A stretch of 64,000 nt of DNA from a bacterium (GTDB taxonomy: Bacteria > Patescibacteriota > Minisyncoccia > Phycocordibacterales > Phycocordibacteraceae), in the NCBI GenBank assembly GCA_037200965.1, contig JBBCGK010000001.1, positions 128,001-192,000 of the forward strand, read 5' to 3'. The translations under genes were made by a program, and so were the position numbers. The notes beneath the pieces were generated by a model. It was not told where the DNA came from, did not search any database, and worked only from the letters and a program-made list of their open reading frames with translations. Below are positions 10,255 through 38,837 of this stretch, in pieces; positions within the stretch are counted from its first letter, which is position 1, and every line of letters starts with the position of its first letter.

Positions 10255-12157
10255 GCACTTCCCTAAAGCCGACAGCTGACAGCTGATTATAGGTATTCTG
10301 TGTAATGTCTGAGGGCCACGGCCTGATAAAAACAACTACGCTAAAAGGCTCATTATTCATCAAATTCTCGAGATCCTGAATATTAATATAACTTGCGTCC
10401 AAGATGAAATGTTTGCCCGACTTTGCGTTAAAAACATTACCCAGCACATTTTTTTTTCCATAATTTCCAGCGTTTTCATTATAAAAGAAAATCTCTTCGT
10501 CGTACAAAATATATTTAATTGGCAATCCGTAATCGCCAATTTGAACCCCCATGTAATTTGGAATTACGATTGTGTCCTTAGGTAGAGCATTTTTAATAAA
10601 ATTTGCTGGTTGCGAGAAATCTAAAGTTTTAGACCACATAACGTCTTGAGCGTTCAATATTCCTACCGAAAAAAGAGAGGTGGCAATAATTGTTCCAAAA
10701 GCAATTCGCTGCCCTAACGAAAGACCTTTAAAGAATTCAGTAACACTTAGTGCAATTGCCAAAGCCCAGATAGGAGATGTAATAAAAAAGTACCGATACC
10801 CAGCAGGTGTACCTGCTAGCATAATAGGAATGTAAGACACCACAAGCCATATTATGAGATAGATCAGTTTATTCTTAAGAAACTTATCTCTTGCATATAA
10901 CAGCATCGCTATAATACCTGATAATGCAATCGTATTTACTAAAATGGTTGCTATATTACCCCATGAATAAGAATACGGATAAAAAACACTTTCTCTATAA
11001 CTTGCCCACGGAGGAAGACCGCCGATTAAACCATGATAGTAGAAAGCGATGGCGTCAGCAGGATTGCCCTTATAAGCCAGTAGAGCGCACACAGGTAAGC
11101 CTAAAGAAATAAAGAAAAATACCTGATAAAACTCCCGCTTTCTATTTAAAATAACCCACAGAAAAGAAGTGAGGTAAGCCGTAAAAACAAACCAGATATT
11201 AGTGAGATTATTATCTAATAAGATAGCAAGCGCTACGGCAGATAGAATATATTTAAGTATCCTTTGCTGAATACAAACGATCAAAAATAAGAATAGATAA
11301 AATAATGCTACGCTAAAAATATATCCACGAACCTCGTTTTCCAATGTAAGTAGAAAGTAAGAAGTAGAGTAAATTAATAGTGCTAACAAGGCAGTCCTTG
11401 AATTTGTATACTTCTTTGCTAAAGAAAATAAAGGGTATAGTGCGCCAAGGTAAAATAAAAGATTTAAGAATCGACCAGCGTGCAAATAATTATGAGTTAA
11501 TACATTTGCTATATGTAGAAAAAAGAAATAAATAAATCCGGATGATATAGGATTCTCTGATGGAAAATAAGGAAACGAACTAGTGCCATAAATGCTTGCG
11601 GTTTTAATCGATATCCATTCATCTAACCAAAAGGAATGAATAAAAGGCCATTGATAGACAACCATTCCTAAATTTATTACAAATATCGAAACAATAAGAA
11701 CAATATATATAGGACTGTTATCCACTTTATCAATCACATGAGGATCTATTTTTATTTTATGCAAGAAAGACCTTTGGTATACAAGAATACCTGCACAAAT
11801 GCCAATAAGAACTGCGTAATATGCTGAGTCTGGATTAGTTGTCTCAACAAAGCTAAATAATTTATTTAAATCTAAGAGAAGCAGAAAAGTTAAGCAGCTC
11901 CATAATGAGGTAATAGCTACAATAAAAACATATTTATCTAAGACTTTAGAGGTAAAACTACGATACCAATTAAGAAAAGCTGCGTAACTAGATACTATCC
12001 CACATGTTAATAGAAATGTTTTAGGAATAAACCAAGTAAAATCGAGTCCGAAACACGCAATGCAGAACAGTACTATTGAAATAGTAAGAAGAAAAGGCGT
12101 GAGAAAGCGAGTCTCAAGTACTTTAAGTAACCTGAATATTTTGCTTCTACTGAACAT
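10211..12157 (-). CDS. GT-C-type polytopic membrane glycosyltransferase-like protein (ArnT/PMT-like) with C-terminal soluble domain
   Basis: ~450-aa multi-TM N-terminal region plus ~180-aa C-terminal domain; architecture of GT39/GT83 enzymes. No precise family call is possible from sequence alone. Confidence 0.5.
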   Translation of the reverse strand: MFSRSKIFRLLKVLETRFLTPFLLTISIVLFCIACFGLDFTWFIPKTFLLTCGIVSSYAAFLNWYRSFTSKVLDKYVFIVAITSLWSCLTFLLLLDLNKLFSFVETTNPDSAYYAVLIGICAGILVYQRSFLHKIKIDPHVIDKVDNSPIYIVLIVSIFVINLGMVVYQWPFIHSFWLDEWISIKTASIYGTSSFPYFPSENPISSGFIYFFFLHIANVLTHNYLHAGRFLNLLFYLGALYPLFSLAKKYTNSRTALLALLIYSTSYFLLTLENEVRGYIFSVALFYLFLFLIVCIQQRILKYILSAVALAILLDNNLTNIWFVFTAYLTSFLWVILNRKREFYQVFFFISLGLPVCALLAYKGNPADAIAFYYHGLIGGLPPWASYRESVFYPYSYSWGNIATILVNTIALSGIIAMLLYARDKFLKNKLIYLIIWLVVSYIPIMLAGTPAGYRYFFITSPIWALAIALSVTEFFKGLSLGQRIAFGTIIATSLFSVGILNAQDVMWSKTLDFSQPANFIKNALPKDTIVIPNYMGVQIGDYGLPIKYILYDEEIFFYNENAGNYGKKNVLGNVFNAKSGKHFILDASYINIQDLENLMNNEPFSVVVFIRPWPSDITQNTYNQLSAVGFREVPNMQPFRLFVLEKE

Positions 12158-12428
12158 TTAGGTTAATCTTTGAAAGATTTGTAGATGTGCCACTCGCTAT
12201 CGGTATACTCGTCTGTGACCCGCTTACCTGAGTTAAGTAACCATTCGTGTTGGTATCTTTCCGTACCGGAGAAAGCGGTATTCCTTTAAATGCGAAAATT
12301 CCAGCCCGTACATACGAGCCGGAACAGGTCCGTTGCTCCCGGAGAGGTTCTTGAAAAATACGTTTTTCCCGCCAATTAAACAAGTGTTTGTATATTCGCG
12401 TTCAAAACAGGCAAAAGGGCTCGATACC

Positions 12429-13541
12429 TCAAGCTTTTTTGCGTATTTTGACCAACACGGAATTTAACGTAGCTCCGCTTACCTCATATTTATATTTTGC
12501 ATACTTATTAATCAAATTTAGTGGGCTGTAACCTATTTTATATAAACATCCACGATAGAAAGTGGCTGTCCCATGTCCAGCCTTACCGAAAGTTAAGTTT
12601 TGATGACCATTATAATCCTTCCAAATTGTACTGGTCTCTATATACGTTCTTCCAACTAGATTTTCATCAATATACAGTTCGATATAGGCGCTCGTGTCTG
12701 GAAAAGGAGAATACGTAGCGAAAGCGCTGTGCTTGCTATTAAAAAAATCTTCCTTAATTGGATAAGTAATAACATAAAATGGACCTTGTGCGTCGGTCAT
12801 ACGTCCCACTTGAAAAGATACCGTACTTTTATTTTGCAACAGCTCCCAATTATAATGCCCCACAATCTCCTGAAAACCCTGCGTCGGGTCCTCCGGCGTC
12901 CACTCGGCATACACCGTAAACGGTCCGTCTTCGAACATATCGGCAGATCCGGGAAGCTCGAGCTTGCTCTTCCCGTCGAAATACTCGCACCCGTCAAAGT
13001 GAAAGGAATCGCCGACAAGATCGCCCGGCGTACTCGTCGAGAAATCCCACGAATAATCCCAGTCCACCGAGTCCGGATCGAAATCAAGATGCGGCGGGAT
13101 AACCTCGATGCCCGGTCCGCCTTCGACGGAAACCGTCACCCGCGCATTCTTAAGCGCAACGCCTGGATCGAACGTGGCCATGACAAGCCCGTTGAGCTCC
13201 CGATAGGGAATTCCGTTCTCGTCAACCTTCCGCTCGCTTAGCTGCCGGGAAGGCTCGAGGCGGAAAGGACCCGACGTATCGCCCGGAGAGCCCACTTCTA
13301 TAGTAAAGTTCTTCGAGTACCCGAAGGGAAGGAAATTGACGTAGAGAACATAGAGAAGGAAAACGAGCGGGATGGCATACGCGGCAAAGGTCAGCCAGAA
13401 CTCGAGAGTCCGGACGGCCCGCCGGAATCTCGCAGGAGTCTCTCTAATGAAGCGCGTAACTTCCGCAGCGGCCCTGTGAAGGGCCGCTGCCGCGTAGCTA
13501 GCTACGCGCTCGTATATGCCGTTTGCGTCCATGCAATGCAT
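12429..13541 (-). CDS. membrane-anchored hypothetical protein with probable LamG/ConA-like beta-sandwich domain
   Basis: One N-terminal TM helix, then a W/Y/G-rich beta-type sequence. High GC resumes here. Confidence 0.45.
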   Translation of the reverse strand: MHCMDANGIYERVASYAAAALHRAAAEVTRFIRETPARFRRAVRTLEFWLTFAAYAIPLVFLLYVLYVNFLPFGYSKNFTIEVGSPGDTSGPFRLEPSRQLSERKVDENGIPYRELNGLVMATFDPGVALKNARVTVSVEGGPGIEVIPPHLDFDPDSVDWDYSWDFSTSTPGDLVGDSFHFDGCEYFDGKSKLELPGSADMFEDGPFTVYAEWTPEDPTQGFQEIVGHYNWELLQNKSTVSFQVGRMTDAQGPFYVITYPIKEDFFNSKHSAFATYSPFPDTSAYIELYIDENLVGRTYIETSTIWKDYNGHQNLTFGKAGHGTATFYRGCLYKIGYSPLNLINKYAKYKYEVSGATLNSVLVKIRKKA

Positions 13542-13731
13542 TTAGCCACGATTCTCCGATTTCTGCAATGCATCTCGTCCTTAATATCCCATATAATTGA
13601 GACCACACCAAAGATACCAGCGCAATATCCGAACTGCCGCTATCCCCACGATCATTGATTTTTCACTTGCGCGCGCTATACTGCAGTCATACATAGCTTC
13701 GTCCGCTTTCCACGGAACGGAGAAATAATGC

Positions 13732-14581
13732 ATGAAAACGAACAACCGAAAGAGGGTTCCCGCCTCGGACGCGCTTATTTCAAAGCTGGTGCAGCTTGAG
13801 ATAGAGATAAGCAAACTGCCCCGCCTTTCCCCGCTTGAGCAGGCGAAACTTAACAACGGACGCGCGATCGAGCATTTGTATTATTCCAGCAAGCTGGAAG
13901 GCAGCAGCCTCAGCGAAAAGAAAATAGAACACGCCATCTATGGCCGACGGATTTCGGCCGCCTAAAGACAAGGATGAGCTCGAAGACCGCGAAGTGCGCG
14001 GCTTCTGGAAAGCTATCGCGCTTTCAAAGAAAATCGGCGAGAGCAGGGAACGCATCACCCTCGATACTATATTGCGCATCCACCGGACCATGTTCGAGTC
14101 CGTAGCCCCGGCAATGGCCGGTCGTTTTCGCACTGCCGGGGAGGATATAAAGAAGTTGGAATGCCTGGAACCTCCTCCGGGGAGGGTTGTACAGGAAAAG
14201 ATGTATGAATTCTGGAAAATCCTAGACGCGCAGTTGTCAGTACTCCCGTCGCATGCCAAAGGGAATACCGTCACGCAGACAAGAAAATGGAGGACCTCCG
14301 TTTTTGACACAGCGACTTGGACCCAGCATCAGGTTGCCGCAATACACCCGTTCTGCGACGGGAACGGCCGCATGTCCCGGCTCCTCACGAATCTTATACT
14401 CAGCAGATACGGGCTCCCTCCGAGCCAAGTTAAATATGAAGGTGAGGATAAGAAAATGTATCTGAGAGCGCTTTGCCAGATTGATCTCTATGGGGACTAT
14501 GAGCCGCTCAAAAAACTCATCGTGCGGAGCGTCTACGAGGAGTACCGAAAAGAACGCATTTTGAGAAGGAGAAACGGTTAG
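13732..14581 (+). pseudogene. Fic-family protein split by a +1 frameshift (77-aa N-terminal SxxxEG piece plus 213-aa Fic core)
   Basis: ORF 13732..13965 carries YSSKLEGSS (SxxxEG); overlapping ORF 13940..14581 in the +1 frame carries HPFCDGNGRMSR. Together they reconstruct a ~290-aa class II-like Fic. Promoter TTGATT-N17-TATACT at ~13657-13690. Confidence 0.55.
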
Positions 14582-22439: not shown

Positions 22440-22589
22440 GGCATCCTCTTCGCTACATGTTGCACCAACTAGACTGCTCGGATTCTAGGCCGAACCCTGC
22501 TTGCCGTCAAGCAGCAGCCCGAACCGTGTTATTGCCGAATCTTCCTTTTCCGCTAGAATGCAGAAGTCCCGCATGCGGGGCACAAACAT

Positions 22590-22900
22590 TCCGCGGTAGC
22601 TCAATGGTAGAGCAGCTCCCTGTGGCAAACGCAGCTTCCAAAGGAAACTTTGGTCGAAGAACGAGGTGAATTCGGGGAACCCCGAGCGAGAAATCGCGGG
22701 CAATCCCGAGCCAAGTCCCGAATGTCGGGAAAGGTGTAGAGACTATCTCGCAAGAGAGTACTTGGAAAGACGGATTAATCTTTGTCTTTCCCGGGAAGCG
22801 CCTCGCACCCTTCGGGGTGATGATATAGTCCATCCCTGCCAGTAATGGAAGGAGCGATGTAAGGAGTTGGTTCCAGGTTCGAGTCCTGGCCGCGGAGCCA
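22590..22900 (+). tRNA. tRNA-Asn(GUU) interrupted by a group I intron
   Basis: Exon 1 (22590-22623): acceptor TCCGCGG, D-arm GCTC-AATGGTA-GAGC, anticodon stem GCTCC plus CUGU. Exon 2 (22860-22900): UAA-GGAGT, variable TGGTT, T-arm CCAGG-TTCGAGT-CCTGG, acceptor CCGCGGA, discriminator G, CCA. Spliced anticodon loop CUGUUAA gives anticodon GUU. Confidence 0.75.
22624..22859 (+). ncRNA. group I intron (~236 nt) in the tRNA anticodon loop
   Basis: 5' exon ends in U; intron ends in G. An IGS-like GCAG (22631-22634) can pair with exon CUGU, including a U-G wobble. Conserved core R-like GTAGAGACTA (~22735-22745) and S-like GATATAGTCC (~22822-22831). Confidence 0.7.
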
Positions 22901-24502
22901 GATAGGATTAACATCAGCGAAAGCTGGTGTTTTTCCTTTATTGACGGGCTTTTTTGGCGGTTCGAAAGTTCTTTTTTCGTCTGTTTTTTCTCCCATCATC
23001 TGCATGACACGGTCGGAGATGATTTTGAAGGCTTTATGGTATGAAATCTCCACTTTCTTGCCGTTTATCGTCGAGTTCGAAAATAACAGCGACATCAAAA
23101 GCTTCTTGTCGTCGACCATCTCGAGCGTGCTCCGGTTTACGTAAATCTTCCGCGCCTCCTTGGCCATCTGCAAGAAAGTCGATCCCATGTCGAAGTACTT
23201 GAGATTAGCGTTCTTGTGCTTATTGAGGCTATCCATCACTTCTTCCTGCTCGAGCTTGTACTGCGCGTACTTTTTCTGATAGAAGTCCTCGCTTATTTTG
23301 CCGTCGATCTTATCGTCATATATTTTGTCGAGCCGTTGCGTCGCCGTCTGATATCGTCGCTCCAGCTCGCCGGTTGCCTTTTCCCTGAATTCTATTTCCT
23401 CGCTATGGCTTTCCTTGAGTGCTTCCTGAACCCAGGTGAGCATATGCTCGATGGCCTCGTCATGCTTCGAGCTTAACTGCTCGATATTTTCCATCACTTG
23501 CTCGTCGACCTGCTCCTGCCGGACATATTCTTTCTGCGTGCAGTTTTTATAGTGATTGCAGTGGCCATACCAATGGCCTTTCTGTATCTCCCACGTTACG
23601 CGGCCCTTGCACTCCTCGCACCGAAACACGTTTTTGAAAAGCGAGTTGTGCTTGTTGTATCTCGGCGTGCCGTTGCTGTGCATGATGTCTTGGCACCGCA
23701 TGAATAATTCTTTGGTGATAAGCGGCTCATGTCCGCCCTGGGCGACTTTGCCGTTCCAGCGGTTCATGCCGTAGTAGAACGGATCGCCAAGAAGCTGATG
23801 CACGCGCGAGTGACTTACCTTGTTGCCTCCGCGCGAGCGCATGCCGAGCTTGTACATCTCATCGGCCAGTTTCTTGGTCGAGTGTATATTCGTGGCATAG
23901 AGTTCGAACATTCTTTTGACGATCGGTGCCTTATCCGGATCGAGCACGTGGATTTTGTGTCCCTTCTCGCCGACGGTTTTGTAGCCGAGCGGCGGCTTGC
24001 TCGGCAGCCAGCCTTGCGCGAGCTTTTCTTTCTGGCCTTTCTTCACGTTCTCGGAAAGGAGTCGGATGTAGTACTCGGCCGTGGCTACTTTGACGCGCCA
24101 CATAAACCACTCGTGCGACTTGGAGTCCTTGTGGAGCGTACAGCTCTCTTTGACGAGGTGGATGGTGTGCTTTTCATCGGCCAGTATCCACTCGTCGATG
24201 ACCGGCACGTCGGCAAAGTTGCGCGTGAGGCGGTCGGTCGTCTCGACGAAGATCGTGTTGATCTTCGTCTTGGTCACGTATTCGAGCATCTCGTGGAATA
24301 TCTTGCGCTGGATTTTGCCAGCCGCCGATTCCTGGATGGCGAATACCTTGACCATCTCGTAGCCGTTGCGATCGGCATAGTCGTGCAAGAGCTTTTCCTG
24401 CGCCGGAAGCGAGTAACCGGTATCCTCCTGATCCTTGGATGACACGCGGGCGTACCCCACGGCTCGCAATGGTTGATTTTCTTGATTCATTGTCATGGTC
24501 AT
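22775..24502 (-). CDS. large serine recombinase (phage/ICE-type integrase)
   Basis: AVGYARVSSKDQ catalytic Ser region, recombinase domain, Cys-rich zinc-ribbon (CEECKG...CNHYKNC), coiled-coil C-terminus. Track ORF starts at a GTG (24550); an ATG at 24502 is the more likely start. The 3' ~126 nt run antisense through tRNA exon 2 and the intron 3' end. Confidence 0.85.
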   Translation of the reverse strand: MTMTMNQENQPLRAVGYARVSSKDQEDTGYSLPAQEKLLHDYADRNGYEMVKVFAIQESAAGKIQRKIFHEMLEYVTKTKINTIFVETTDRLTRNFADVPVIDEWILADEKHTIHLVKESCTLHKDSKSHEWFMWRVKVATAEYYIRLLSENVKKGQKEKLAQGWLPSKPPLGYKTVGEKGHKIHVLDPDKAPIVKRMFELYATNIHSTKKLADEMYKLGMRSRGGNKVSHSRVHQLLGDPFYYGMNRWNGKVAQGGHEPLITKELFMRCQDIMHSNGTPRYNKHNSLFKNVFRCEECKGRVTWEIQKGHWYGHCNHYKNCTQKEYVRQEQVDEQVMENIEQLSSKHDEAIEHMLTWVQEALKESHSEEIEFREKATGELERRYQTATQRLDKIYDDKIDGKISEDFYQKKYAQYKLEQEEVMDSLNKHKNANLKYFDMGSTFLQMAKEARKIYVNRSTLEMVDDKKLLMSLLFSNSTINGKKVEISYHKAFKIISDRVMQMMGEKTDEKRTFEPPKKPVNKGKTPAFADVNPIWLRGQDSNLEPTPYIAPSITGRDGLYHHPEGCEALPGKDKD

Positions 24503-24546
24503 AATTGCTAATAATTTGTTGGTTCGAATTCGACGTTCGGTACCAG

Positions 24547-24596
24547 ACACACCATATGCCTATTCGTTTGCGCTGCTAAGCCCGAGTTACCCACAT
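24547..24596. repeat. copy A of an imperfect ~50-60-nt repeat (TATGCCTATTCG...AAGCC...GTTACCCACAT)
   Basis: Shares blocks CCTATGCCTATTCG and GTTACCCACAT with 35475..35534; same orientation; immediately upstream of the intact recombinase gene. Confidence 0.5.
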
Positions 24597-24708
24597 TCCA
24601 CCAGTCTTTTGCTCGAAACGTTGGGTTTTGTTGGCTTTTGTTGGGTATTTGCAGCATTTTCCGGTGGCTACTGGTGGGTTCCGGTGACTCAAAAACGGTT
24701 AAATAAGG

Positions 24709-25293
24709 TCAGTTGCGGTTAAATGACGACCGGCCTTTCATCGTCATTTTTGCTACCAGCTTGGCTTTCATGTCGTTGATCTTCTTGAGGTTCGCGCCGT
24801 TAACTTCTTTATAATTTTCTTTAATTTCTTTTGAACCCTTAGCTTCTCTATCTTCTCCGTGCGATGCGGTATGCGCCGCGTGCCGGCCGGCATTTCGTGC
24901 AGATCGGCCGCCATCCTGCGCCAGATGTAGGACGGAAAGCAAGGTGATGCTTCGTGGCTTGAACTTGGCATCCGCGCCACGCACTTTCGTGGTCACGATA
25001 AATGCCCACGCTTCGAGCGTGTCGAGACATTTCTTGATCGTGCGCCAGTCTTTGAGGCCACAGTAAAGCAAGAGCGTCCGGTTCGACGCCTCGATGGTTT
25101 GGCTCGCTTTGTTCGATGCGATCTCAGTCAGAGCGCAGTAGACATTCCGCAGATTGCGGTACGCATCATCGCTTACGCGCTTGTCGATCCATTCCTGTCG
25201 CATGTACCGCAAAGCCGGCTTGTCTTGATAGGCAAACGGAGCTTCGCGGTAGTCTCGGACCTTATGCTTTTGTTCGCTTTGGTTTGGTGTCAT
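24709..25293 (-). CDS. hypothetical protein of integrative element (possible wHTH replication/regulatory protein)
   Basis: Basic protein; wHTH-like segment ASNRTLLLYCGLKDWRTIKKCLDTLEAW. Confidence 0.4.
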   Translation of the reverse strand: MTPNQSEQKHKVRDYREAPFAYQDKPALRYMRQEWIDKRVSDDAYRNLRNVYCALTEIASNKASQTIEASNRTLLLYCGLKDWRTIKKCLDTLEAWAFIVTTKVRGADAKFKPRSITLLSVLHLAQDGGRSARNAGRHAAHTASHGEDREAKGSKEIKENYKEVNGANLKKINDMKAKLVAKMTMKGRSSFNRN

Positions 25294-25471
25294 ACGGTTC
25301 GATGAGCGTGCGGCCGCTCGTGATGTCCTCGAGGTAAAACCGCGACAGCGCGTCGTAGTACCTCACCAGATTGAAGGCGATGTCGTGCAGGTCTTGGTCG
25401 TTTACGTCCAAGCCAAAGTCATGCTTCAGGATCGCACGGAGCTTCTCCAGCGTTTCCGGTTTGATTTTCAC
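25262..25471 (-). CDS. hypothetical small protein
   Basis: 69-aa ORF; 3' end overlaps the next gene start. Confidence 0.3.
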   Translation of the reverse strand: MKIKPETLEKLRAILKHDFGLDVNDQDLHDIAFNLVRYYDALSRFYLEDITSGRTLIEPYDTKPKRTKA

Positions 25472-25476
25472 AGGTC

Positions 25477-25719
25477 TTAGTCCTCGGCATAAATCCGTAC
25501 TTTGACCTGTTTGAGCTGGTTGAAGAACGCCTGCGGTTCGACCGCAAGCTCGCGATTCCAGTATCGCTTCACCAGAGAATCCAGGTCAGGGCTCTTGCCG
25601 AAACAAAAGAGCACCTTGTGCGGATTTCCCCGATCCACGACCTCCAGAGAATCAGGAATGAATAATAAAAGCACCGCGACCAATGCCAGGTCGGCGGTTT
25701 TGTAATAATTGTTTTGCAT
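25477..25719 (-). CDS. hypothetical small protein
   Basis: 80-aa ORF in the same gene string as the recombinase. Confidence 0.3.
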   Translation of the reverse strand: MQNNYYKTADLALVAVLLLFIPDSLEVVDRGNPHKVLFCFGKSPDLDSLVKRYWNRELAVEPQAFFNQLKQVKVRIYAED

Positions 25720-25868
25720 GTGGCATTTTCATTGTCATTAACGTCCTCTCACACGCATTCATTGTGGCAATTTGGCATACGCTTCTGGAATACTGCGAGC
25801 GTGTAGTCAGACACGAAAAAAGCAGCCATTTTGCTGCTTGTCGCTCCCACTTATTAACTACATCAGAG

Positions 25869-26534
25869 CTACACCTCTTTTATTTTGTATTCCGGATTGA
25901 GTTTGTATCCGTTTACGGCGCGGCCAACGATAAAGCTGTCGATGCCGAGCGCGTAGCGCACCTTGCGGTTGATCATGAGCTTCGCGTTGTGGAGCGACTT
26001 GCGGTTCTTGCTTCCGGTCAATCCTACAAGCTCGTCCGTTGGCACATACCCCTTTCGTTCAAGAAGGACCCGTACGATTTTCTGCCGTTGCTTTTCCGTA
26101 CCCATCGAGTAGCAATGCTTAGCTTTCGGCTCGCGGTACAGGTCGCCATCTTTTGAAAAGTAAACGGTCTTTTTACTATCTGCCGGCTTGGTTCGCTTGC
26201 CGGCAAGGCCGTATGCCGCGCCTTCGGCCGTGAGCTTCGCCACGCTTGTTTCCAAGTCCGCGATTTTGCCAAGCGCAGCCAGATACGCTCGTGTCATTGC
26301 TTCTATGCTCCGGCTGTTTTGATTGAGCGCACCCACCAATGCTTGAATGGCCAGATCGTCGGTCTTTACCAGTTCGGCCGGCCGCTCGATGTCCGCAAAG
26401 TCCCTGAGCGCGGATCGCAGTTCGCCGGTAATCGCAGAGGTAGAAAAGCGATAAGCATTCGCCATACCGACAGACCGGTTCGTATTGAATTTGTACGTCT
26501 TGGCCAATGTGGCCTTTTTCATCTTCATAATCAT
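25869..26534 (-). CDS. hypothetical protein of integrative element
   Basis: 221-aa ORF; C-terminal wHTH-like region; divergent from the AbiE operon. Confidence 0.4.
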   Translation of the reverse strand: MIMKMKKATLAKTYKFNTNRSVGMANAYRFSTSAITGELRSALRDFADIERPAELVKTDDLAIQALVGALNQNSRSIEAMTRAYLAALGKIADLETSVAKLTAEGAAYGLAGKRTKPADSKKTVYFSKDGDLYREPKAKHCYSMGTEKQRQKIVRVLLERKGYVPTDELVGLTGSKNRKSLHNAKLMINRKVRYALGIDSFIVGRAVNGYKLNPEYKIKEV

Positions 26535-26636
26535 CTTTAAGCCGTATTGCTTATTCTGGATAAGCTACTTGTGCTTAAGCTTAGTATATCATATAATGCA
26601 CTGGAAGTTAGCTTTAAACTAACTATAGGTAAGTAT

Positions 26637-27254
26637 ATGGATAATAAACCGACAAAAGGTCAATATGTAGAGGTCTTATTGAGATCTCCCAAAACCGTCT
26701 TTTCAATCAAAGACGTGGCTTTGTTATGGGGAGAAGAAGCTGAAAATGCTGTTCGCGTCAGATTAAACAGCTACGTAAAAAGCGGTAAGTTGATCCGAGT
26801 ACATCGCGGCTTTTATGCTAAAGACAAGAATTACAACCGTTCTGAATTAGCGACTGCGATCTACACTCCCTCTTACATCAGCTTTGAGTCTGTTTTAACT
26901 CGTGCCGGTATCAACTTTCAATACTACGGCAATATTTTTGTTGCTTCATACGTGACCAGAGAGATCGAAGCTGATGGTCAAAAAATCTCTTTCATCCGCA
27001 TGAAAGATTATGTCTTAAGTAACACTGCCGGCATCGAGCATACGGAAGGTATTGCCACAGCAACTAAGGAGCGCGCTTTCTTGGACCGGATTTATGTCAG
27101 CAAAGACTATCATTTCGATAATTTGGATGCTTTGGATTGGGATAAAGTCTTTGAGATGTTACCTATCTACCACAACAAGCGAATGGAAAAGAAAGTAAAG
27201 ACCTATCTCGAGCACTATAAAAGCAACCAGCCCGATAAAGCGAAAAACGTATGA
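26637..27254 (+). CDS. AbiEi-family antitoxin/transcriptional regulator
   Basis: N-terminal wHTH and ...SGKLIRVHRGFYA... typical of AbiEi; stop overlaps the AbiEii start. Confidence 0.6.
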   Translation: MDNKPTKGQYVEVLLRSPKTVFSIKDVALLWGEEAENAVRVRLNSYVKSGKLIRVHRGFYAKDKNYNRSELATAIYTPSYISFESVLTRAGINFQYYGNIFVASYVTREIEADGQKISFIRMKDYVLSNTAGIEHTEGIATATKERAFLDRIYVSKDYHFDNLDALDWDKVFEMLPIYHNKRMEKKVKTYLEHYKSNQPDKAKNV

Positions 27255-28285
27255 CTTTAGATTACTCAAAGCACAAAGCAATATTGCTCCAAATTCTCAA
27301 GGATATTTATTCCGATACTTCGATCGCTCCTCACTTGGGTTTCAAAGGCGGGACGGCCGCGCTTTTATTCTACGGACTCAATCGTAACTCGGTAGACTTG
27401 GACTTCGATCTGTTGGACGAAAGCAAAGAGGCAGAGGTCTTTGAGAAGATTCAGAAAATCACTGCGGCCTATGGAACGATTACCGATTCCTACATTAAAA
27501 AGTTCAATCTCCTGAATGTTATCTCTTACGCACCTGGAGCACAGAAGATAAAAGTCGAAATCAATCGCCGGAACTTTGGCTCGCGCTATGAGCTTAAGAC
27601 CTTGCTTGGTATCTCCATGCTGGTCATGGTGGAAGCTGATACATACGCCCACAAATTGATGGCCATGTACGAGCGCGTCGGTAAGACGAGCCGTGATATT
27701 TTCGACGTGTACTATTTCGAAAAGAAAGGCTGGGATATCAATAAAACTATTGTTGAGGATCGTTCCGGACTGTCATTCAAGGACACCCTCGCCAAGTGCA
27801 TCGATTTGCTGGAAAAGATGGATAACAAGCACATCTTGGATGGCTTGGGTGAATTGCTGACAGATCCGCAAAAAGATTGGGCCCGCGCCAAGCTCAAAGA
27901 AGAGACTATTTTCTTGCTCAAAGTAAAAATGGAAGGCTTGGGCAAGATTGATACCCTGCCGCCATATACTTCGGCCGATGTTGAAGCTATACAAACCATA
28001 CTCAATGATAAGTTCTTTAAGAACACTCCTTTTGCATGCGAGAAATTGACGGTTAAAAAGGATAAAGTGTTTTTCGAAAAGAACAGCTCTGACGAGGATA
28101 GCTACGGGTACGACATTGAGTGCGTGCTTTTGCAGGATGGTAAGAAGGTAGAAGTCTCGATCGATCCGATAACAAACAAGGTCGGCGCAGATCAAGTTGC
28201 CCATCTCATAGCACATACCGTTTGGGCAAAGCTGGATCAATCGATGACCAGTCAGCTTTGGAAGAATTTTCCAACCAACCTATAA
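27251..28285 (+). CDS. AbiEii/AbiGii-family nucleotidyltransferase toxin (DUF1814)
   Basis: GFKGGTAALLFYGLNRNSVDLDFDL, the hallmark NTase motif of AbiEii. Confidence 0.7.
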   Translation: MTLDYSKHKAILLQILKDIYSDTSIAPHLGFKGGTAALLFYGLNRNSVDLDFDLLDESKEAEVFEKIQKITAAYGTITDSYIKKFNLLNVISYAPGAQKIKVEINRRNFGSRYELKTLLGISMLVMVEADTYAHKLMAMYERVGKTSRDIFDVYYFEKKGWDINKTIVEDRSGLSFKDTLAKCIDLLEKMDNKHILDGLGELLTDPQKDWARAKLKEETIFLLKVKMEGLGKIDTLPPYTSADVEAIQTILNDKFFKNTPFACEKLTVKKDKVFFEKNSSDEDSYGYDIECVLLQDGKKVEVSIDPITNKVGADQVAHLIAHTVWAKLDQSMTSQLWKNFPTNL

Positions 28286-28289
28286 ATTT

Positions 28290-29360
28290 ATGCCAAAGGA
28301 AATCGCCAAAAAGTCATTGAATAAGAACTTGCACAAGGCAAGCGCCGCGAAGAAAGATGAGTTTTATACTCAGATTGTTGATATTGAAAAAGAGTTGAAA
28401 CACTACAAAGATCAATTCCGTGGCAAGGTAGTGTATTGCAACTGCGATGATCCATTTGAGAGCAACTTCTTTAAATATTTCGCAGGAAATTTCAATGCAC
28501 TCGGACTGAAAAGACTTATTGCCACTAGTTACAAGCCGTCTCCTATAGCCAATACGCAATTAGGGCTATTTGGCGACATCAAGGCCATAAACACGCCCAA
28601 GGGCCGTCCTAAGGTAACCGCGAACAAATTCATTATCAATGAAGTTGATGATATAGACGGCGATGGCGCATTTGACTTGCGTGATATTGCCGAGCAACTC
28701 AAGGCTAACAAAAACAATGAATGGGCTCCATTAGAGGGTGAAGGAGATTTTAGAAGTGAAGAAAGCATAGAACTGCTGAAGCAAGCTGATATTGTAGTAA
28801 CAAATCCGCCTTTTTCCTTGTTCCGCGAGTATGTCGCACAGCTAGTAGAACACAACAAAAAGTTTTTGATTCTAGGTGACCAAAATGCAGTAACCTATAA
28901 AGAAACCTTTGGCTTCATCAAAGAAAATAAACTATGGCATGGCTACGACAATGGTGGCACAAAATGGTTTCAGGTTCCTGACGATTATGACATTGAGACT
29001 GAATCAAGAATAAAAGTTGAGAATGGTATAAAGTTTTTCAGCATGGGTAGAATTGTGTGGTATACAAACCTCGAGACCACAAAACGTCACGAGAAAATAG
29101 TCTTGTATAAGAAATATACACCAGAGGAATTCCCTAAATATGATAATTCCGATGTTATAAACATCGATAAAGTCTCCGATATTCCGATGGATTATGACGG
29201 AGTGATGGGTGTACCAATTACTTTTGTTGATAAATATAGTCCAGCACAGTTTGAAATTTTGGGTATCGCTAATTCCGCAAGATGGATTGGTTACGAATGT
29301 TTTACCTTGATTAAAGGTAGGAAAATATATAATCGAATTTTAATTAAGCGTAAAAAATAA
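28290..29360 (+). CDS. putative N6-adenine DNA methyltransferase
   Basis: NPPF (VVTNPPFSLF) motif IV and upstream DEFYTQ; 5 nt after AbiEii and 1 nt before the next gene. Confidence 0.55.
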   Translation: MPKEIAKKSLNKNLHKASAAKKDEFYTQIVDIEKELKHYKDQFRGKVVYCNCDDPFESNFFKYFAGNFNALGLKRLIATSYKPSPIANTQLGLFGDIKAINTPKGRPKVTANKFIINEVDDIDGDGAFDLRDIAEQLKANKNNEWAPLEGEGDFRSEESIELLKQADIVVTNPPFSLFREYVAQLVEHNKKFLILGDQNAVTYKETFGFIKENKLWHGYDNGGTKWFQVPDDYDIETESRIKVENGIKFFSMGRIVWYTNLETTKRHEKIVLYKKYTPEEFPKYDNSDVINIDKVSDIPMDYDGVMGVPITFVDKYSPAQFEILGIANSARWIGYECFTLIKGRKIYNRILIKRKK

Positions 29361-29361
29361 T

Positions 29362-30465
29362 ATGAAAATTGATCTAAACAAAATTACTGTGCGGGAAGTC
29401 GTGAATGGCTACAAAGATGGCTCTGAGGAGGGCGTTGTTGCGTATGGTGGAAAGCTTGATGTGCGCCCGAAGTATCAGCGCGAATTCGTATACAAAGACA
29501 AACAGCGCGATGCGGTTATTGATACCGTTAGAAAAGGCTTCCCTCTCAACGTGATGTATTGGGTGAAAACCGATGACGGAAATTTTGAAGTACTTGACGG
29601 ACAGCAGAGGACAATCAGTCTAGGCCAGTATGTAAATGGCGACTTCTCGGTGGATTTCAATGGTCGCCTCGCTATGTTCCATAACCTTACCAAAGAGGAG
29701 CAGGAACAAATTCTGAACTACGAATTGATGATTTATTTCTGCGAGGGAAACGATAAAGAGAAACTTGATTGGTTTAAGACAATCAATATTGCCGGAGAGC
29801 GTTTAACCGACCAAGAGCTACGCAACGCTGTATATACCGGCCCGTGGCTTTCTGATGCAAAGCTAAAATTCAGCAAATCAAACTGTGCGGCGTATTTGTT
29901 GGCAAACGATGGCGGACAGTTAATTAGCGGCTCGCCGATCCGGCAAGAGTATTTGGAAACCGCACTCTCGTGGATAAATAACGATGAAGTGGCCAATTAC
30001 ATGGCCAAACATCAACACGACGAGAATGCAGAGGAATTGTGGGCTTACTTCCAAAGCGTTATTGCATGGGTACGAAAGACGTTCCCAAATTACCGCAAGG
30101 AAATGACGAGTGTGAATTGGGGTGAGCTATACAACGAATTCAAAGACAAGAAATTGAATGAGACTAAGCTCGAAGCCGAAGTTAAGAAGTTGATGCAAGA
30201 CGAGGACGTGACGAAAAAGTCCGGTATCTACCCTTATGTCTTAACGGGACAGGAGCGAGAGCTTTCTATCCGCGCTTTTACCGACAAGATGAAGCGTGAA
30301 GCATACGAGCGGCAAGATGGCATCTGCCCGTTTTGCAAGAAAAAATATGACATCTCAGAAATGGAGGCCGATCATATTGCTCCATGGCATGAAGGTGGAA
30401 AGACTACGGCCGAAAATTGTCAGATGCTCTGCAAACAAGACAACCGGACGAAGTCTGGAAAATAA
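29362..30465 (+). CDS. DUF262 (ParB-like DGQQR NTPase/nuclease) plus C-terminal HNH endonuclease protein (GmrSD-like)
   Basis: DGQQR motif (LDGQQRT) and HNH motif DHIAPWHEGGKTTAENCQMLCKQDN. Confidence 0.75.
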   Translation: MKIDLNKITVREVVNGYKDGSEEGVVAYGGKLDVRPKYQREFVYKDKQRDAVIDTVRKGFPLNVMYWVKTDDGNFEVLDGQQRTISLGQYVNGDFSVDFNGRLAMFHNLTKEEQEQILNYELMIYFCEGNDKEKLDWFKTINIAGERLTDQELRNAVYTGPWLSDAKLKFSKSNCAAYLLANDGGQLISGSPIRQEYLETALSWINNDEVANYMAKHQHDENAEELWAYFQSVIAWVRKTFPNYRKEMTSVNWGELYNEFKDKKLNETKLEAEVKKLMQDEDVTKKSGIYPYVLTGQERELSIRAFTDKMKREAYERQDGICPFCKKKYDISEMEADHIAPWHEGGKTTAENCQMLCKQDNRTKSGK

Positions 30466-30482
30466 GGTTATGAAAGAGTCCC

Positions 30483-32966
30483 ATGAAAATCATCCGAGCT
30501 ATACAATTTTTCTTTCGTAGGATTTCATGGAGACAGAGAACCTCTCCCTCCTTTGCTTTTGAAGTGGACAAAAAACCGAACTGGCTCGTCTATGCTTGGG
30601 GTGTCTTTGCCGGCTTCTTTTACAGCATCTTTCAGCGACGACGCGAGTCATTAAGGGTACTTTACCGCAATCAGGAACGCCGGAAGACTGAGTACACCAT
30701 ACCGATGCAGATCGTGCGGCAGTCTATGGGTACGATCTTGGTTCTAATACTGGCACTGGTCGGAGTAACCCTCGCTGATTGGGGCGTCGAGAAGCTCGCA
30801 AATCTACTCTCTCAGGTGCAGGCCGGCTGGTTTATAGCTTTCGCCGCACACTTTAATTTCTTTACGATTCCCGACAAAGAATTCTTTAAGCTCGTGCTTG
30901 AGATATCTATTGGCGCGATCTCCGCCATCCTCGGACTCTTATTTGCTTTATACGCGGTCGGTCTCCAGCTCACGACCGATAAGTACTCGTCTAAGGTGTC
31001 CGATTACGTCAATCAGGAAACCGTCGGCAATTTCTTTTTCAAACTCCTCGTCTTTACTGATATCTTTGCGATTGCCGTCTTGCTCCGTATTCAGATTCTC
31101 GCGCTTCCGTCACCGATCAGCTTCATTGCCGTTGTCGTTCTAGTAGTTATCTGCTTGCTTGGCATCATTGTTTTCAAGAATCACTACATTCTCACCATCA
31201 AGCCGAAGAACCTTTTTGAGAGGTTGCAGTCCGACATAAAGACGAGCATCCGGCTTGCCTCGGATCGGACCCGGTATTCCTATAAAAGCTGGAGCATTGT
31301 GCAGACTTCGCGCGTGCGAACGCAGGATCATCTCTCAATACTCAAAACTCTCTTTGAAGATCTCTGGCACGCCGAAAATTGGAACGACGTGATTTACACG
31401 CCGATGGTGCTTGCAAACTTGATCACCGACTACGCCAAGCGAAAGAAATATATCGACAGAGAGCGTGGCTGGTGGTTCCCGCAAACGCAGGTGGAGGTCA
31501 AGGCAAACAGCATGTCTACGCTCACCCTGAAGCTGAATTTCGAGCTTCAGGGCAAAGGGCCTCTGCGTATAGGTAGCCCAGACTATTTGTGGTTCGAGAA
31601 CGGTATTTTCGACATTCTCAAAGCGGTAGAGTCTCGTGTTGGAACTGCGCCGCAGGATACTCATCTGCTCAAATACGTCATTGATTTTTATCAGACCGCA
31701 CTTGCTGGCGACTACGAAAAAGATGAGTACAGCCGCTATCAGAAAGCAGTCGCGGGTCTATATGAGAATCAGGAGACCGACGCTTTCGAGAAATATCTCG
31801 ATGGCTTCTTTGCTTTGTATGAGAGAGTGCAAACCGACGACGAGCTGGGCGCGTATCTCAACGCTTACTTTGCGATCGGGCTGACTCTTATCGACGGCTT
31901 CGATTACGCCAAGTATCAGGAGGTAATAAAATCGCTCATCGGCGCAGACGGCCAGCTCACTCGCACCCGTGAGGAGCTTGCTCGGCTCGATCTGCCCGGA
32001 GTGTTTTATAACCAAATCCTCGACTACTGGGATCGCCTCGATCTTGAAGTCCAGTGTGAGGGACGCGTTATAACGCCGCAAGACCGGCTCGAAAAGGAAA
32101 CGCTCGACGATGCCCATGCAAAGGAAAAGCAGTACTTCGCCAAATTCTTTGAGAAGCTGATTACGCACCACAACACCGTTCTCCAAGACCTCTACCAGAA
32201 AGGAAAACATAAGGAGCTTGCGATGTTCATCAAGGCTCGCTTCGAGTGGATCAGTCGCTTGCTTTATATCAACAAGGTTGCTCTGGCCGACGAGTATGGC
32301 GCGAAGATCGCCGGTGCTGGCGTTTACCTTCCATTTCTGCCAAAGCAGATACTTCTCGACTCGGAGTTTTGGGAAGAACTTGAAAAGACTCTATTCCCAT
32401 CAGTCATTGAAAATTGCCCAACGCTTTTTAAGGTGTTGTCCGGATTGCTCACGCTCATGTTGCCAGTCATCAATGCCGACGAGAAAAATGTCGACAACAT
32501 CATGTATCGCAATCGCCTCGGTCTCATTCTTGGCGGATTCGTATACCTCGTCTGCGAATTCAGGCAGGATTACAGCCTGATGATCGAGTACGTGCAAACG
32601 ATTGAAGTTGCGTACCAGCCAGGCCAGTTCGTCAAAGCAATGGAGGTACTCTCGAAGCCGAAGGAAGTCGGAGGTCTCGACCTCACGCTCAAGCTCATAA
32701 ACTGGGAGCTTACTCGCTACCATCACTGGTTCGGCGAAATCCTCGGCCAGATATCGGAGCTTCCTAAGACCTACGATAACGTCCGTGTCTATTCCGGCTT
32801 GCAAGAGGTCGCAGACCATCCGAGCAAGTTCATCCGTGAGTTGAGCTACCGGCCGTACCAGCCGGAGGAAGAATGCGCGGAGGCATTTGTCGAGTGGGCA
32901 AAGAAGCGAGATGCTATCCGACAATTGGTCGAAGTGCTTAAGAAAGTTCAAGAGAAAAAGATATGA
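30483..32966 (+). CDS. large (827 aa) membrane-anchored protein of unknown function
   Basis: ~4 TM helices in residues ~80-230, then ~600-aa soluble region with no recognisable motif; low GC. Confidence 0.5.
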   Translation: MKIIRAIQFFFRRISWRQRTSPSFAFEVDKKPNWLVYAWGVFAGFFYSIFQRRRESLRVLYRNQERRKTEYTIPMQIVRQSMGTILVLILALVGVTLADWGVEKLANLLSQVQAGWFIAFAAHFNFFTIPDKEFFKLVLEISIGAISAILGLLFALYAVGLQLTTDKYSSKVSDYVNQETVGNFFFKLLVFTDIFAIAVLLRIQILALPSPISFIAVVVLVVICLLGIIVFKNHYILTIKPKNLFERLQSDIKTSIRLASDRTRYSYKSWSIVQTSRVRTQDHLSILKTLFEDLWHAENWNDVIYTPMVLANLITDYAKRKKYIDRERGWWFPQTQVEVKANSMSTLTLKLNFELQGKGPLRIGSPDYLWFENGIFDILKAVESRVGTAPQDTHLLKYVIDFYQTALAGDYEKDEYSRYQKAVAGLYENQETDAFEKYLDGFFALYERVQTDDELGAYLNAYFAIGLTLIDGFDYAKYQEVIKSLIGADGQLTRTREELARLDLPGVFYNQILDYWDRLDLEVQCEGRVITPQDRLEKETLDDAHAKEKQYFAKFFEKLITHHNTVLQDLYQKGKHKELAMFIKARFEWISRLLYINKVALADEYGAKIAGAGVYLPFLPKQILLDSEFWEELEKTLFPSVIENCPTLFKVLSGLLTLMLPVINADEKNVDNIMYRNRLGLILGGFVYLVCEFRQDYSLMIEYVQTIEVAYQPGQFVKAMEVLSKPKEVGGLDLTLKLINWELTRYHHWFGEILGQISELPKTYDNVRVYSGLQEVADHPSKFIRELSYRPYQPEEECAEAFVEWAKKRDAIRQLVEVLKKVQEKKI

Positions 32967-34066
32967 GACGACGCGCTTACAAACAAAGAGTGAAAGGCTA
33001 TGTGTTCGATGATCCGTTCCTCGGCTACATTCAAGGCCGCGACCGGCTAGAGAAGGCGTCATGGAACGCAATGGAACTAAGCAACGAGACCGACTCTGTA
33101 CGGTACTCGCTCTTTCCGTTGCGCGATATACCGGTGGCGGATCGTCCCGGCTATGTGACTCACGAACGCAATTACTTCAGCATCGAGTGCGATGATCCAG
33201 TCTTGAAAAAAGACCTCGAGATGTATTTCACCGACGAGCATTCGTTCTATCGGGATGGCCTGTACGGTCAGGGCGATGTGCTAGGAGGCTTTTTGGAGAG
33301 CATCGCGCACGAGCTGTTTGTGGTCGGCGATTCATTCCGCATGATCGAATGGGAGGAGGTCGATATCAAAGGCCGGAAGTATCAATTTCCAGTCGACTTT
33401 GAATATCTCAGGAACGAGACGATGAAAGTGCGCCGCAAGGGAGGGTTGATCGTAGGTTATCGGCAAAAGTACAGCCTCTTTACCTATCTCAAGGAGAAGC
33501 GATTCAAGGGATACGAGGATAAAGAGAAGCCGCGATCGTTTGAGTTTGAAAAAGAGGAGGTTGTGTACTGCAAGTATCCGTTTGCTAAAAAGTCGCCGAC
33601 GGCGCAGAGCATCAAATACCTTAAGCCAATCAAGAAGTTCTGGCAGTTCGGCATTGATCAATCGAAGAGTGGTGTCGAGGTAGAAAATCATTATCTGCCG
33701 CTTGAGCGAGCGCGGTACACCACCTATTCGCGAGAGAAACGGAAGTACGATATCGCTCGTGGAAAGATACGCACCATTTTCAATTACTTGATGGAAACGA
33801 ACGGGCCTAAGCTCACGCAGTATTACGATATATACACCGTGATCCGCTACAAAAAATTCCTCAATGACTTTAGGGATTATTTGGTACGAGAATTCAACGA
33901 GCAGGTGCTGGCGATCGTGGCAAAAAGGAATGGCTTTACTTCCGTCCCTAAACTCGTCTATAGTGGCTTTCTCTCTAATGCCGAACTGGATGCCGCACTA
34001 CAGGGTTACACAGACGGCACGATCACGTTTGATCAGATTGTTCAGCAAATAGTAAAAAAGTCTTAA
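32963..34066 (+). CDS. hypothetical protein (367 aa), translationally coupled
   Basis: ATGA overlap with the upstream gene; no recognisable motif. Confidence 0.45.
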   Translation: MRRRAYKQRVKGYVFDDPFLGYIQGRDRLEKASWNAMELSNETDSVRYSLFPLRDIPVADRPGYVTHERNYFSIECDDPVLKKDLEMYFTDEHSFYRDGLYGQGDVLGGFLESIAHELFVVGDSFRMIEWEEVDIKGRKYQFPVDFEYLRNETMKVRRKGGLIVGYRQKYSLFTYLKEKRFKGYEDKEKPRSFEFEKEEVVYCKYPFAKKSPTAQSIKYLKPIKKFWQFGIDQSKSGVEVENHYLPLERARYTTYSREKRKYDIARGKIRTIFNYLMETNGPKLTQYYDIYTVIRYKKFLNDFRDYLVREFNEQVLAIVAKRNGFTSVPKLVYSGFLSNAELDAALQGYTDGTITFDQIVQQIVKKS

Positions 34067-34072
34067 AAAGAT

Positions 34073-34666
34073 ATGGGAGAAAAAGATAAACAAATTCTAA
34101 AAGATTCCGCGTTGGTCATTGCCGACCAGATAGCGTCCGCATTGCCGGGATTAAATATTGCATGGGGTTTAAGCAAGGCATTGTATGGTGCTGGTCTAAA
34201 ACTTCGTGAACAAAGAGCATTGGAATGGATTGAAATGGTTAGAGATAATCCCTCGGCATTTACTGAAACAATTATGCAAGATGCGAAATTCCAAGACGGA
34301 TTTGTGTACGCGTTGGAGCGTTATATCAGAGAGAAAAACGATAACAAAAGAAAAGCGATGCGCTCCGTATTTCTTGGGTTTGCGCTATCTCCGAATCAGG
34401 ACACTTTTGAGCTAGAGAGGATGTACCATGTATTAGGTATTCTTAGTGCAGAGGATATGATCGTTTTGAAGGATGTCGATTTTACACGAACCGATTTTCA
34501 TCAAGTGTATGAGCAGACTACCGACAAAAATGAGAACGTCTACAATTTGGTGAATGCCGGAATCTTGATGTCTGACTATTCATCTCGCATTGGCCCCATA
34601 GCCGCGCCATTTATAAAAGTAACTGCGTTTGGGAAAAGTTTTGTCGGATTCTTAAAATCAACATGA
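34073..34666 (+). CDS. hypothetical protein (197 aa)
   Basis: 6-nt gap after the upstream gene; stop overlaps the start of the DUF2726 gene. Confidence 0.4.
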   Translation: MGEKDKQILKDSALVIADQIASALPGLNIAWGLSKALYGAGLKLREQRALEWIEMVRDNPSAFTETIMQDAKFQDGFVYALERYIREKNDNKRKAMRSVFLGFALSPNQDTFELERMYHVLGILSAEDMIVLKDVDFTRTDFHQVYEQTTDKNENVYNLVNAGILMSDYSSRIGPIAAPFIKVTAFGKSFVGFLKST

Positions 34667-35175
34667 CAATCTTTTATATAATTATAGGCATCATTATAGT
34701 CATCGCAGTAGCACTCGCAATTTCCCGTGGAGGTTTTGCTGACGTGGCGGAGAAAGCTAAGTATCGCTATAACCGCAAGAATTTCTTCCTTACTCGAGCA
34801 GAGCACGAATGCTATGACGCTCTCGTTGCGGCAGTCGGCGCGGAGTATCGCATTTTCGCACAGGTGCATTTGCCAACACTGGTCGATCACACGGTTCGGG
34901 GGCAGGATTGGCGCGCGGCTCTGGCTCACATCAATCGGAAGTCTGTTGACTTCGTGCTATGCGATAAGGCGTATCTCTCTCCAAAGCTTGCTATTGAGCT
35001 TGATGATAAGTCCCATGAGCGACCCGATCGGCAAGAGCGCGATCGCGAAGTCGAGCGGATTCTGCGCGAAGCCGCCGTGCCGCTTTTGAGGCTAGAGAAT
35101 CATGGCCATTTTGCTCCTGACGAACTAAAAAGATTGATCGAGAACGCTCTGACACCGTCTACTCCAACAACTTAA
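34663..35175 (+). CDS. DUF2726 (NERD/PD-(D/E)xK-like nuclease fold) protein with N-terminal TM helix
   Basis: FLTRAEHECYDAL...RKSVDFVLCDK...AIELDDKSH, characteristic of DUF2726. GC content rises sharply relative to the upstream genes. Confidence 0.6.
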   Translation: MTIFYIIIGIIIVIAVALAISRGGFADVAEKAKYRYNRKNFFLTRAEHECYDALVAAVGAEYRIFAQVHLPTLVDHTVRGQDWRAALAHINRKSVDFVLCDKAYLSPKLAIELDDKSHERPDRQERDREVERILREAAVPLLRLENHGHFAPDELKRLIENALTPSTPTT

Positions 35176-35470: not shown

Positions 35471-35474
35471 CGCA

Positions 35475-35534
35475 ACACGACCCTATGCCTATTCGCGTGA
35501 GAAGCCAAGCTCGTTTTGGCGTAGTTACCCACAT
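35475..35534. repeat. copy B of the imperfect repeat
   Basis: See copy A; lies between ORF 35159..35470 and the recombinase remnant. Confidence 0.5.
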
Positions 35535-37196: not shown

Positions 37197-37200
37197 CTTG

Positions 37201-38771: not shown

Positions 38772-38837
38772 TTCAATGGGCTTGTGCGAACAGAAGGGCC
38801 GCCGGAGCGATTCGGCGGCCTTTTGTTATACTTTGAA

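Follow-up and report, generated by a model that had tools for sequence, protein, structure and literature searches.

Among bacterial tRNA introns, the closest described relatives of the element reported here are the group I introns that interrupt tRNA-Asn(GUU) genes of Patescibacteria between U35 and U36. Nakagawa et al. (mSystems 2026, PMC13011429; preprint 10.1101/2025.07.03.662931) recorded 22 tRNA genes carrying introns across 95 complete genomes of Patescibacteria, and 15 of the 22 were tRNA-Asn(GUU) genes that a group I intron interrupts at 35/36, the most frequent kind of tRNA intron reported in the phylum. According to the credit given in that paper, the class was first listed as 'Asn.4Ug' by Williams 2020 (bioRxiv 10.1101/2020.01.27.920355). 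Nearly all of these introns belong to subgroup IA, most are without homing endonucleases, and the genes are missed or misnamed by standard tools; representatives self-splice in vitro with precise 35/36 junctions, and a mutant in which omega-G is changed to C loses ligation (PMC13011429). In this study we analyzed a 64-kb stretch of DNA (contig JBBCGK010000001.1 of assembly GCA_037200965.1; hereafter the window), which contains a split tRNA gene at positions 22590-22900. With high confidence we assign this locus as a Patescibacterium tRNA-Asn(GUU) gene carrying a 236-nt group I intron between U35 and U36.

The window intron matches the published class in every respect testable and is a further member of it. 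The phylum, the tRNA, the insertion site, the exon-final U and the intron-final G are the same, as are the lack of a homing endonuclease gene, the P7.1/P7.2 periphery and the failure of tRNA finders to detect the gene or to name it correctly, and nothing of substance differs. The window copy comes from a draft or metagenome-assembled genome (MAG) outside the complete-genome set of PMC13011429, is relatively G+C-rich (53%) and is abutted by a serine-recombinase island, whereas the words 'integrase' and 'recombinase' are absent from the text of that paper. The host could be placed by its MurA protein (59798-61117, minus strand), whose named homologues at 75-78% identity are all from 'Candidatus Paceibacterota' or 'Patescibacteria group', indicating a Patescibacterium (Paceibacterota-like). 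An identical copy of the DinB protein encoded in the flank occurs in NCBI assembly GCA_015689235.1 and in a Logan assembly.

The classical bacterial tRNA introns, namely those of cyanobacterial and plastid Leu(UAA) (34/35), Azoarcus Ile(CAU), Agrobacterium Arg(CCU) and cyanobacterial fMet, are likewise self-splicing ribozymes of the anticodon loop, small and without an open reading frame (ORF), in which P1 is formed from anticodon-loop nucleotides with a U•G wobble. However, they belong to subgroup IC (IC3), lack P7.1 and P7.2 and are inserted at 33/34, 34/35 or 36/37 (PMC13011429), whereas the window intron has covariation-supported P7.1 and P7.2 and lies at 35/36. The original prediction for this locus, made from the sequence without database searches, named Leu, fMet, Ile and Arg as the classical hosts and considered Asn(GUU) at 35/36 unusual. 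That list corresponds to the pre-2020 picture, and the premise is out of date because 35/36 tRNA-Asn introns of this phylum have already been published and shown to splice; with 15 of 22 genes in the published survey, such a host is not unusual.

Architecture and fold of the split tRNA-Asn gene

The gene and its candidate expression signals are arranged as follows.

22532-22559, plus strand: candidate sigma-70-like promoter (TTGCCG, 16-nt spacer, TAGAAT), about 30 nt upstream of the tRNA 5' end; a pattern match only, from a consensus scan (9 of 12 matches)
22590-22623, plus strand: tRNA-Asn 5' exon (34 nt), comprising the acceptor 5' strand, the D arm, the anticodon stem 5' strand (22615-22619) and loop nucleotides C32, U33, G34 and U35; from ARAGORN on the spliced sequence
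22624-22859, plus strand: group I intron (236 nt), without an ORF, its final nucleotide being omega-G 22859
22860-22900, plus strand: tRNA-Asn 3' exon (41 nt including CCA), comprising U36, A37 and A38, the anticodon stem 3' strand, the variable loop, the T arm, the acceptor 3' strand, the discriminator G73 and CCA; from ARAGORN
22910-22941, plus strand: intrinsic-terminator-like hairpin and T-run, directly after CCA, from the element side of the left attachment site (attL)

Both tRNA halves are thus present where they had been predicted, at 22590-22623 and 22860-22900. When they were joined in silico, ARAGORN recognized a 75-nt tRNA-Asn(GTT) with the anticodon loop CUGUUAA, in whose cloverleaf every stem is Watson-Crick or G-U paired. 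The exons carry U1-A72, CCA is encoded, and the nucleotide directly before it, G22897, is the discriminator G73, an identity element for asparaginyl-tRNA synthetase. The final nucleotide of the 5' exon is U22623 and that of the intron G22859, and the predicted spliced junction (22623/22860) reads ...CTCCCTGT joined to TAAGGAGTT. Default ARAGORN reported 0 tRNAs in the whole 64-kb window; with long introns allowed it returned a split tRNA at the locus, with misplaced boundaries and the call tRNA-His(gtg) i(35,224).

The group I identity of the insert was supported by an Rfam search, in which RF00028 matched 22608-22852 (plus strand) over model positions 1-253 of 253 with 64.1 bits (gathering cutoff 50, E = 5.8e-14); it was the sole Rfam feature in the window at gathering thresholds. 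Starting from the Rfam alignment, the full secondary structure was drawn by hand, and all helices of the P3-P9 core, including the P3/P7 pseudoknot, as well as P1, P2, P7.1 and P7.2, could be drawn. The helices, all on the plus strand, are given below with the percentage of cells paired in the 30-sequence alignment described in the next section.

22620-22624 / 22630-22634: P1, exon CUGU and intron G1 with CGCAG, loop GCAAA, wobble U22623•G22631 at the 5' splice site
22638-22653: P2, CCAAAG / CUUUGG with a GAAA tetraloop; compensatory changes in 6 of 6 pairs, 97% paired
22662-22668 (CGAGGUG) / 22799-22805 (CGCCUCG): P3, 7 pairs, 98% paired, 3 pairs changed on both sides
22672-22677 / 22704-22709: P4, 100% paired, 2 pairs covarying
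22681-22700: P5/P5a, inside P4, with a GAAA tetraloop; three P5 pairs at 100%, P5a length-variable and poorly aligned
22710-22735: P6/P6a; P6 99% paired, P6a pairs covarying and 88-93% paired
22739-22745 (G-A-GACUA, A22740 bulged) / 22826-22831 (UAGUCC): P7, 100% paired and invariant, in P3-P7 pseudoknot topology
22746-22757: P7.1, UCUC-GCAA-GAGA, 100% paired, 2 of 4 pairs covarying
22764-22791: P7.2, 8-bp stem, 8 of 8 pairs changed on both sides, 84% paired, in a length-variable region
22806-22819: P8, UUCG loop, 4 of 5 pairs covarying, 93% paired
22832-22833 / 22857-22858: P9.0, enclosing P9; 2 of 2 pairs covarying, 100% paired
22834-22852: P9, GUAA tetraloop, 83% paired, 4 pairs covarying

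The intron has a minimum free energy of -86 kcal/mol (z = -2.96 against shuffles), and the unconstrained minimum-free-energy fold regained P2, P3, P5a, P6, P7.1 and P7.2. The R-like element GTAGAGACTA at 22736-22745 comprises J6/7 and the 5' strand of P7, while the S-like element GATATAGTCC at 22822-22831 comprises J8/7 and the 3' strand; both had been pointed out in the original prediction, as had the exon-final U, the intron-final G and the guide GCAG (22631-22634) pairing with exon CUGU (22620-22623) through a U•G wobble, and all of these are found in the modelled fold. The predicted group I insert of about 236 nt at 35/36 is likewise upheld, with the Rfam match, the spliced cloverleaf and the covariation in agreement. 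The pair G22741-C22830, next to the bulged A22740, is presumably the guanosine-binding pair, judging from group I introns in general. The J6/7-P7 sequence GGUGUAGAGACUA is probably the same 13-mer as in the Azoarcus intron. The combination of P7.1 and P7.2, read together with PMC13011429, points to a subgroup IA architecture.

Since homologous Patescibacteria tRNA-Asn introns self-splice in vitro, we infer that this copy splices too. The gene would be transcribed as a single precursor, in which the intron would fold into its P1-P9 core and C32-U35 of the anticodon loop would pair with the internal guide to form P1, with the U•G wobble marking the splice site. The attack after U22623 would then come from an exogenous guanosine bound in P7, after which the terminal G22859 would occupy the same P7 site and the exons would be ligated, the expected product being the mature tRNA with the anticodon loop CUGUUAA.

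Homologues and covariation

To place the window copy among its relatives, one genome collection was scanned with the pattern GTAGAGACTA-N55-85-GATATAGTC, yielding at least 120 loci, mostly from Patescibacteria MAGs; the window's own species was not among the matches listed. Most loci among the matches listed are split tRNA genes, and the tRNA-Asn architecture of the window (exon ...CUGU, intron with a final G, exon UAA...) was found in at least 48 loci (48 of 120 among the matches listed, which is not a prevalence estimate, the pattern having proved generic). ARAGORN called many of these tRNA-Asn loci Thr(UGU). Compared end to end, full-length homologues share about 66-74% identity with the window pre-tRNA. 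Other variants were also seen: at many Patescibacteria loci among the matches listed, related group I introns interrupt tRNA-Phe(GAA) genes, and a minority of the tRNA-Asn introns measure 520-600 nt and may contain an ORF insertion, for example a homing endonuclease.

For covariation analysis, 30 tRNA-Asn copies with short introns were aligned, and the pairs of the tRNA, of P1-P9 and of P7.1/P7.2 were counted. Standard pairs occupied 95.1% of 2394 cells, compared with 36-44% when the 3' partners were slid by 1-3 columns, and changes on both sides were found in 49 of 85 pairs; none of 500 shuffles matched the observed values. The acceptor, D, anticodon and T stems are paired in 98-100% of cells (100% for acceptor and D), and the anticodon stem, whose two strands lie on either side of the intron, is paired in 98% of cells, with covariation in 4 of its 5 pairs. 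In 30 of 30 aligned homologues the intron is preceded by exon CTGT, and at its 3' end G is followed by TAA. The four exon pairs of P1, including the U•G, are likewise invariant in all 30, while the intron-internal pair of P1 covaries (GC 9, AU 6, GU 4, CG 1). P5 is also backed by compensatory changes.

The serine-recombinase island at the tRNA 3' end

The tRNA 3' end had also been predicted to be the integration site of a mobile element, which is corroborated by the sequence CGGAGC at both junctions, by a delimited island of 15.4 kb (about 22899-38299, G+C below that of the flanks) and by reconstruction of the element's own attachment site (attP) in frame. The features that define the element are the following.

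22775-24550, minus strand: large serine recombinase ORF (likely start 24502), with Pfam Resolvase, Recombinase and Zn_ribbon_recom; called as 575 aa in the integrated state
22893-22898: attL core CGGAGC, the host tRNA/element junction
38185-38299, minus strand: displaced recombinase 3' end (within the small ORF 38185-38319), with the tail ...AVRELRTVILSGYKSYEMEAAVKVLRRESPFEFVK followed by a stop and with the right attachment site (attR) core CGGAGC at 38294-38299; same frame as the recombinase

The recombinase contains PF00239 (79 bits), PF07508 (67.6 bits) and PF13408 (25.2 bits, just below the cutoff of 25.3). In the integrated state, approximately 41 codons at its end (22775-22900) lie antisense to the 3' exon of the tRNA and to the intron's P7.2-to-P9 region. 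A search for long direct repeats as attachment sites found none, as expected for a serine recombinase, and attR was located through similarity to the homologous loci L016 and L043 together with the in-frame ORF. Joining the island ends at CGGAGC restored an uninterrupted 572-aa recombinase ending in WLRAVRELRTVILSGYKSYEMEAAVKVLRRESPFEFVK and a stop, with the motif R-x-V-x3-R-T, and an alignment of the joined DNA with locus L122 (the contig of recombinase P0146), in which the recombinase 3' end is contiguous, runs through the junction. The predicted attP junction is GCACCGCTCGGAGCCAGATAGGATT and the predicted empty host site (attB) junction is CCGCGGAGCAAAGCTGGGCGGACC; the sequence across the predicted terminal-crossover junction is ...CCGCGGAGCAAAGCTGGGCGG. 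In the proposed course of events, the large serine recombinase would have inserted the island at the 3' acceptor end of the tRNA through the CGGAGC core, leaving the tRNA intact, with the island supplying the last two CCA bases and a new terminator.

Close homologues of the recombinase are 50-91% identical and conserved up to ...PIWL, in which W-L is encoded by the reverse complement of GAGCCA. Past PIWL three kinds of tail are found: an antisense-tRNA type (RHLDSNQEPTP and similar), very short tails, and the type R-x-V-x3-R-T-..., which is contiguous in P0142, P0146 and P0151. Integration exchanges the last 35 recombinase codons for antisense tRNA and intron sequence. A recombinase ORF running antisense into the 3' exon of a split tRNA-Asn was found at no fewer than six more loci (at least L005, L015, L016, L018, L062 and L070), which suggests that serine recombinases have repeatedly targeted the tRNA-Asn 3' end in this phylum.

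An attP inside the element's own integrase gene is found in intP of Myxococcus phage Mx8 and int of Sulfolobus SSV1, both of which encode tyrosine integrases. The arrangement here resembles these in that the 3' end of the recombinase ORF is altered by integration, but differs in employing a large serine recombinase, in targeting the 3' end of a tRNA gene and in sharing a core of only 6 bp. A literature search on Patescibacteria serine recombinases and tRNA returned nothing relevant. It is tempting to view the split tRNA-Asn as a dedicated target of Patescibacteria-wide serine-recombinase islands that keep attP in their own 3' coding end, the tail swap perhaps switching between integration and excision. 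Taken as a whole, this proposal is doubtful: its structural part is fairly well supported by the CGGAGC core, the in-frame attP, the homologues with contiguous tails and the additional loci, and the regulatory switch is pure speculation. The attP-inside-recombinase arrangement is the only mildly new observation, and it may interest those mining recombinases or studying mobile elements of the candidate phyla radiation.

The island carries the following defence-type cargo.

25477-25719: DUF5659
26547-28285: AbiEi/AbiEii
28290-29360: EcoRI-type methylase
29362-30465: GmrSD_N and HNH nuclease
30483-32966: DUF2254

Nine island proteins had no matches in PHROGs and included no phage hallmark proteins, and a scan of viral contigs (IMG/VR) with the recombinase found no close relatives; the island is therefore not demonstrably a prophage.

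The sequence around attR was inspected separately. The ORF 38185-38319 was considered as a noncoding RNA, a transfer-messenger RNA or a decayed tRNA exon and rejected as such, being the 3' end displaced from the recombinase gene; nothing relevant was obtained from Rfam E-value searches of 37500-39500 and 35000-37600. A repeat (D1) between 36007-36028 and intron P4'-P6 was taken as chance. To the right of attR, 38293-38346 (minus strand) holds an 18-codon remnant (...SVRPALLR) with 72% identity over 18 residues to the C-terminus of the distinct recombinase of L016, and its DNA is 78% identical to the trailer of the tRNA-Asn at L016. The adjacent 38361-38400 reads ATGATATAGTCCA, of which 38361-38373 is an exact 13-nt copy of intron J8/7-P7' (22820-22832), followed by a loosely P9-like stretch; no 3' exon follows the copy, and no Rfam group I match was obtained for 38361-38400. 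Remnant and copy look like debris of earlier events at the site, the remnant probably stemming from an older element integrated there. An 82%-identical copy of the displaced-tail ORF (window 38197-38298) is present in the Saccharibacteria locus L043 (5829-6146, minus strand; LRAAQELRTVILNGYKSYEMEAAVKML...), 3.7 kb downstream of that locus's own split tRNA-Asn and with no recombinase between, and may represent the attR of a degraded island.

Two other regions of the window were noted. G+C falls to 0.35-0.48 at 6000-14000, compared with about 0.58 elsewhere, and PMT_2-type glycosyltransferase ORFs lie there; this may be a second horizontally acquired region. An Eco57I/TaqI_C-type restriction-modification methylase is encoded at 40280-42250 (minus strand), about 2 kb past the right end of the island.

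Alternative readings and consequences for annotation

Several observations weigh against the assignment of a splicing tRNA-Asn intron. At this locus the sequence shows the fold and the exon structure, and splicing is deduced from the published homologues. Attempts to draw a P10 pairing between the 3' exon and the guide gave nothing convincing; the exons may instead be held together by the anticodon stem of the tRNA. The structure was drawn from the window sequence, which makes the slid-partner control somewhat flattering; the compensatory changes are independent of this. P7, the catalytic helix, shows no covariation, and its covariation is uninformative because the retrieval pattern fixed the P7 bases.

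The tRNA finders themselves suggest other identities with other boundaries, tRNA-His(GUG) for the window locus, as described above, and tRNA-Thr(UGU) with the intron at 33/34 for many homologous loci (tgt, i(33,...)), and the Thr/Asn ambiguity of ARAGORN and tFind output is also encountered in PMC13011429. With a boundary at 33/34, the last intron nucleotide would be A22857 and not G, and the invariant CUGU/GCAG P1 helix, including its U•G, would be lost, which excludes the Thr(UGU) reading, and the His reading requires a 5' exon ending in G. Moreover, the exons, with U1-A72 and G73, can be aligned over their full length with tRNA-Asn genes from other Patescibacteria, all 30 aligned homologues have exon CUGU and G|UAA in common, and sequenced spliced products of homologues have the 35/36 junction (PMC13011429). 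A tRNA other than tRNA-Asn is thus extremely improbable. A decaying pseudogene, whose intron no longer splices or whose tRNA is made redundant by an active, intact tRNA-Asn elsewhere, could be suspected from the mobile element at the 3' end of the gene and from the nearby debris, that is, the 13-nt P7' copy (38361-38373) and the remnant of a second recombinase. Nevertheless, every tRNA stem and core intron helix is intact in the window copy, the window sequence by definition keeps all positions that do not vary across the 30-sequence alignment, and the integration junction lies at the extreme end of the acceptor stem, leaving the tRNA sequence whole. In addition, the intron-bearing genes assayed for splicing were the sole copies in their genomes (tRNA-Asn in GCA_016700035.1 and tRNA-Asp in GCA_001029755.1; PMC13011429). 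Decay of the gene is accordingly regarded as very unlikely.

Crossover inside the tRNA happens with tyrosine-integrase islands, and it could be asked whether the 3' exon, possibly together with the intron's 3' end, was supplied by the element through a crossover inside the tRNA or the intron. In its favor, the recombinase ORF covers the entire 3' exon and 85 nt of intron sequence in antisense, and a pseudo-T-arm-like sequence, GGTTCTAAGTTCTCGCACCGCTCGGAGC, is present at the other end of the island. This attR copy, however, is unable to form a T arm and so cannot be the displaced native exon, and the same pseudo-arm occurs in the contiguous attP of homologue L122 and is therefore element DNA. 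On the attL side, similarity to L122 starts only at CGGAGC|CAGATAGG, which places the exchange in or next to CGGAGC and leaves only the last two CCA bases and the trailer as element-derived. A non-native 3' part is hence also very unlikely, and the reading of a native tRNA-Asn gene with a group I intron at 35/36 is retained.

For the biology of the intron itself, the window copy adds little, being one more instance of an experimentally validated class. Its practical consequences lie in annotation: ARAGORN misses the tRNA, and gene callers run the recombinase ORF through the tRNA into the intron, giving the 575-aa call. As a result, the genome would seem to lack tRNA-Asn and would include a protein whose C-terminus is an artefact; completeness estimates and annotation quality of Patescibacteria MAGs are affected by both errors.

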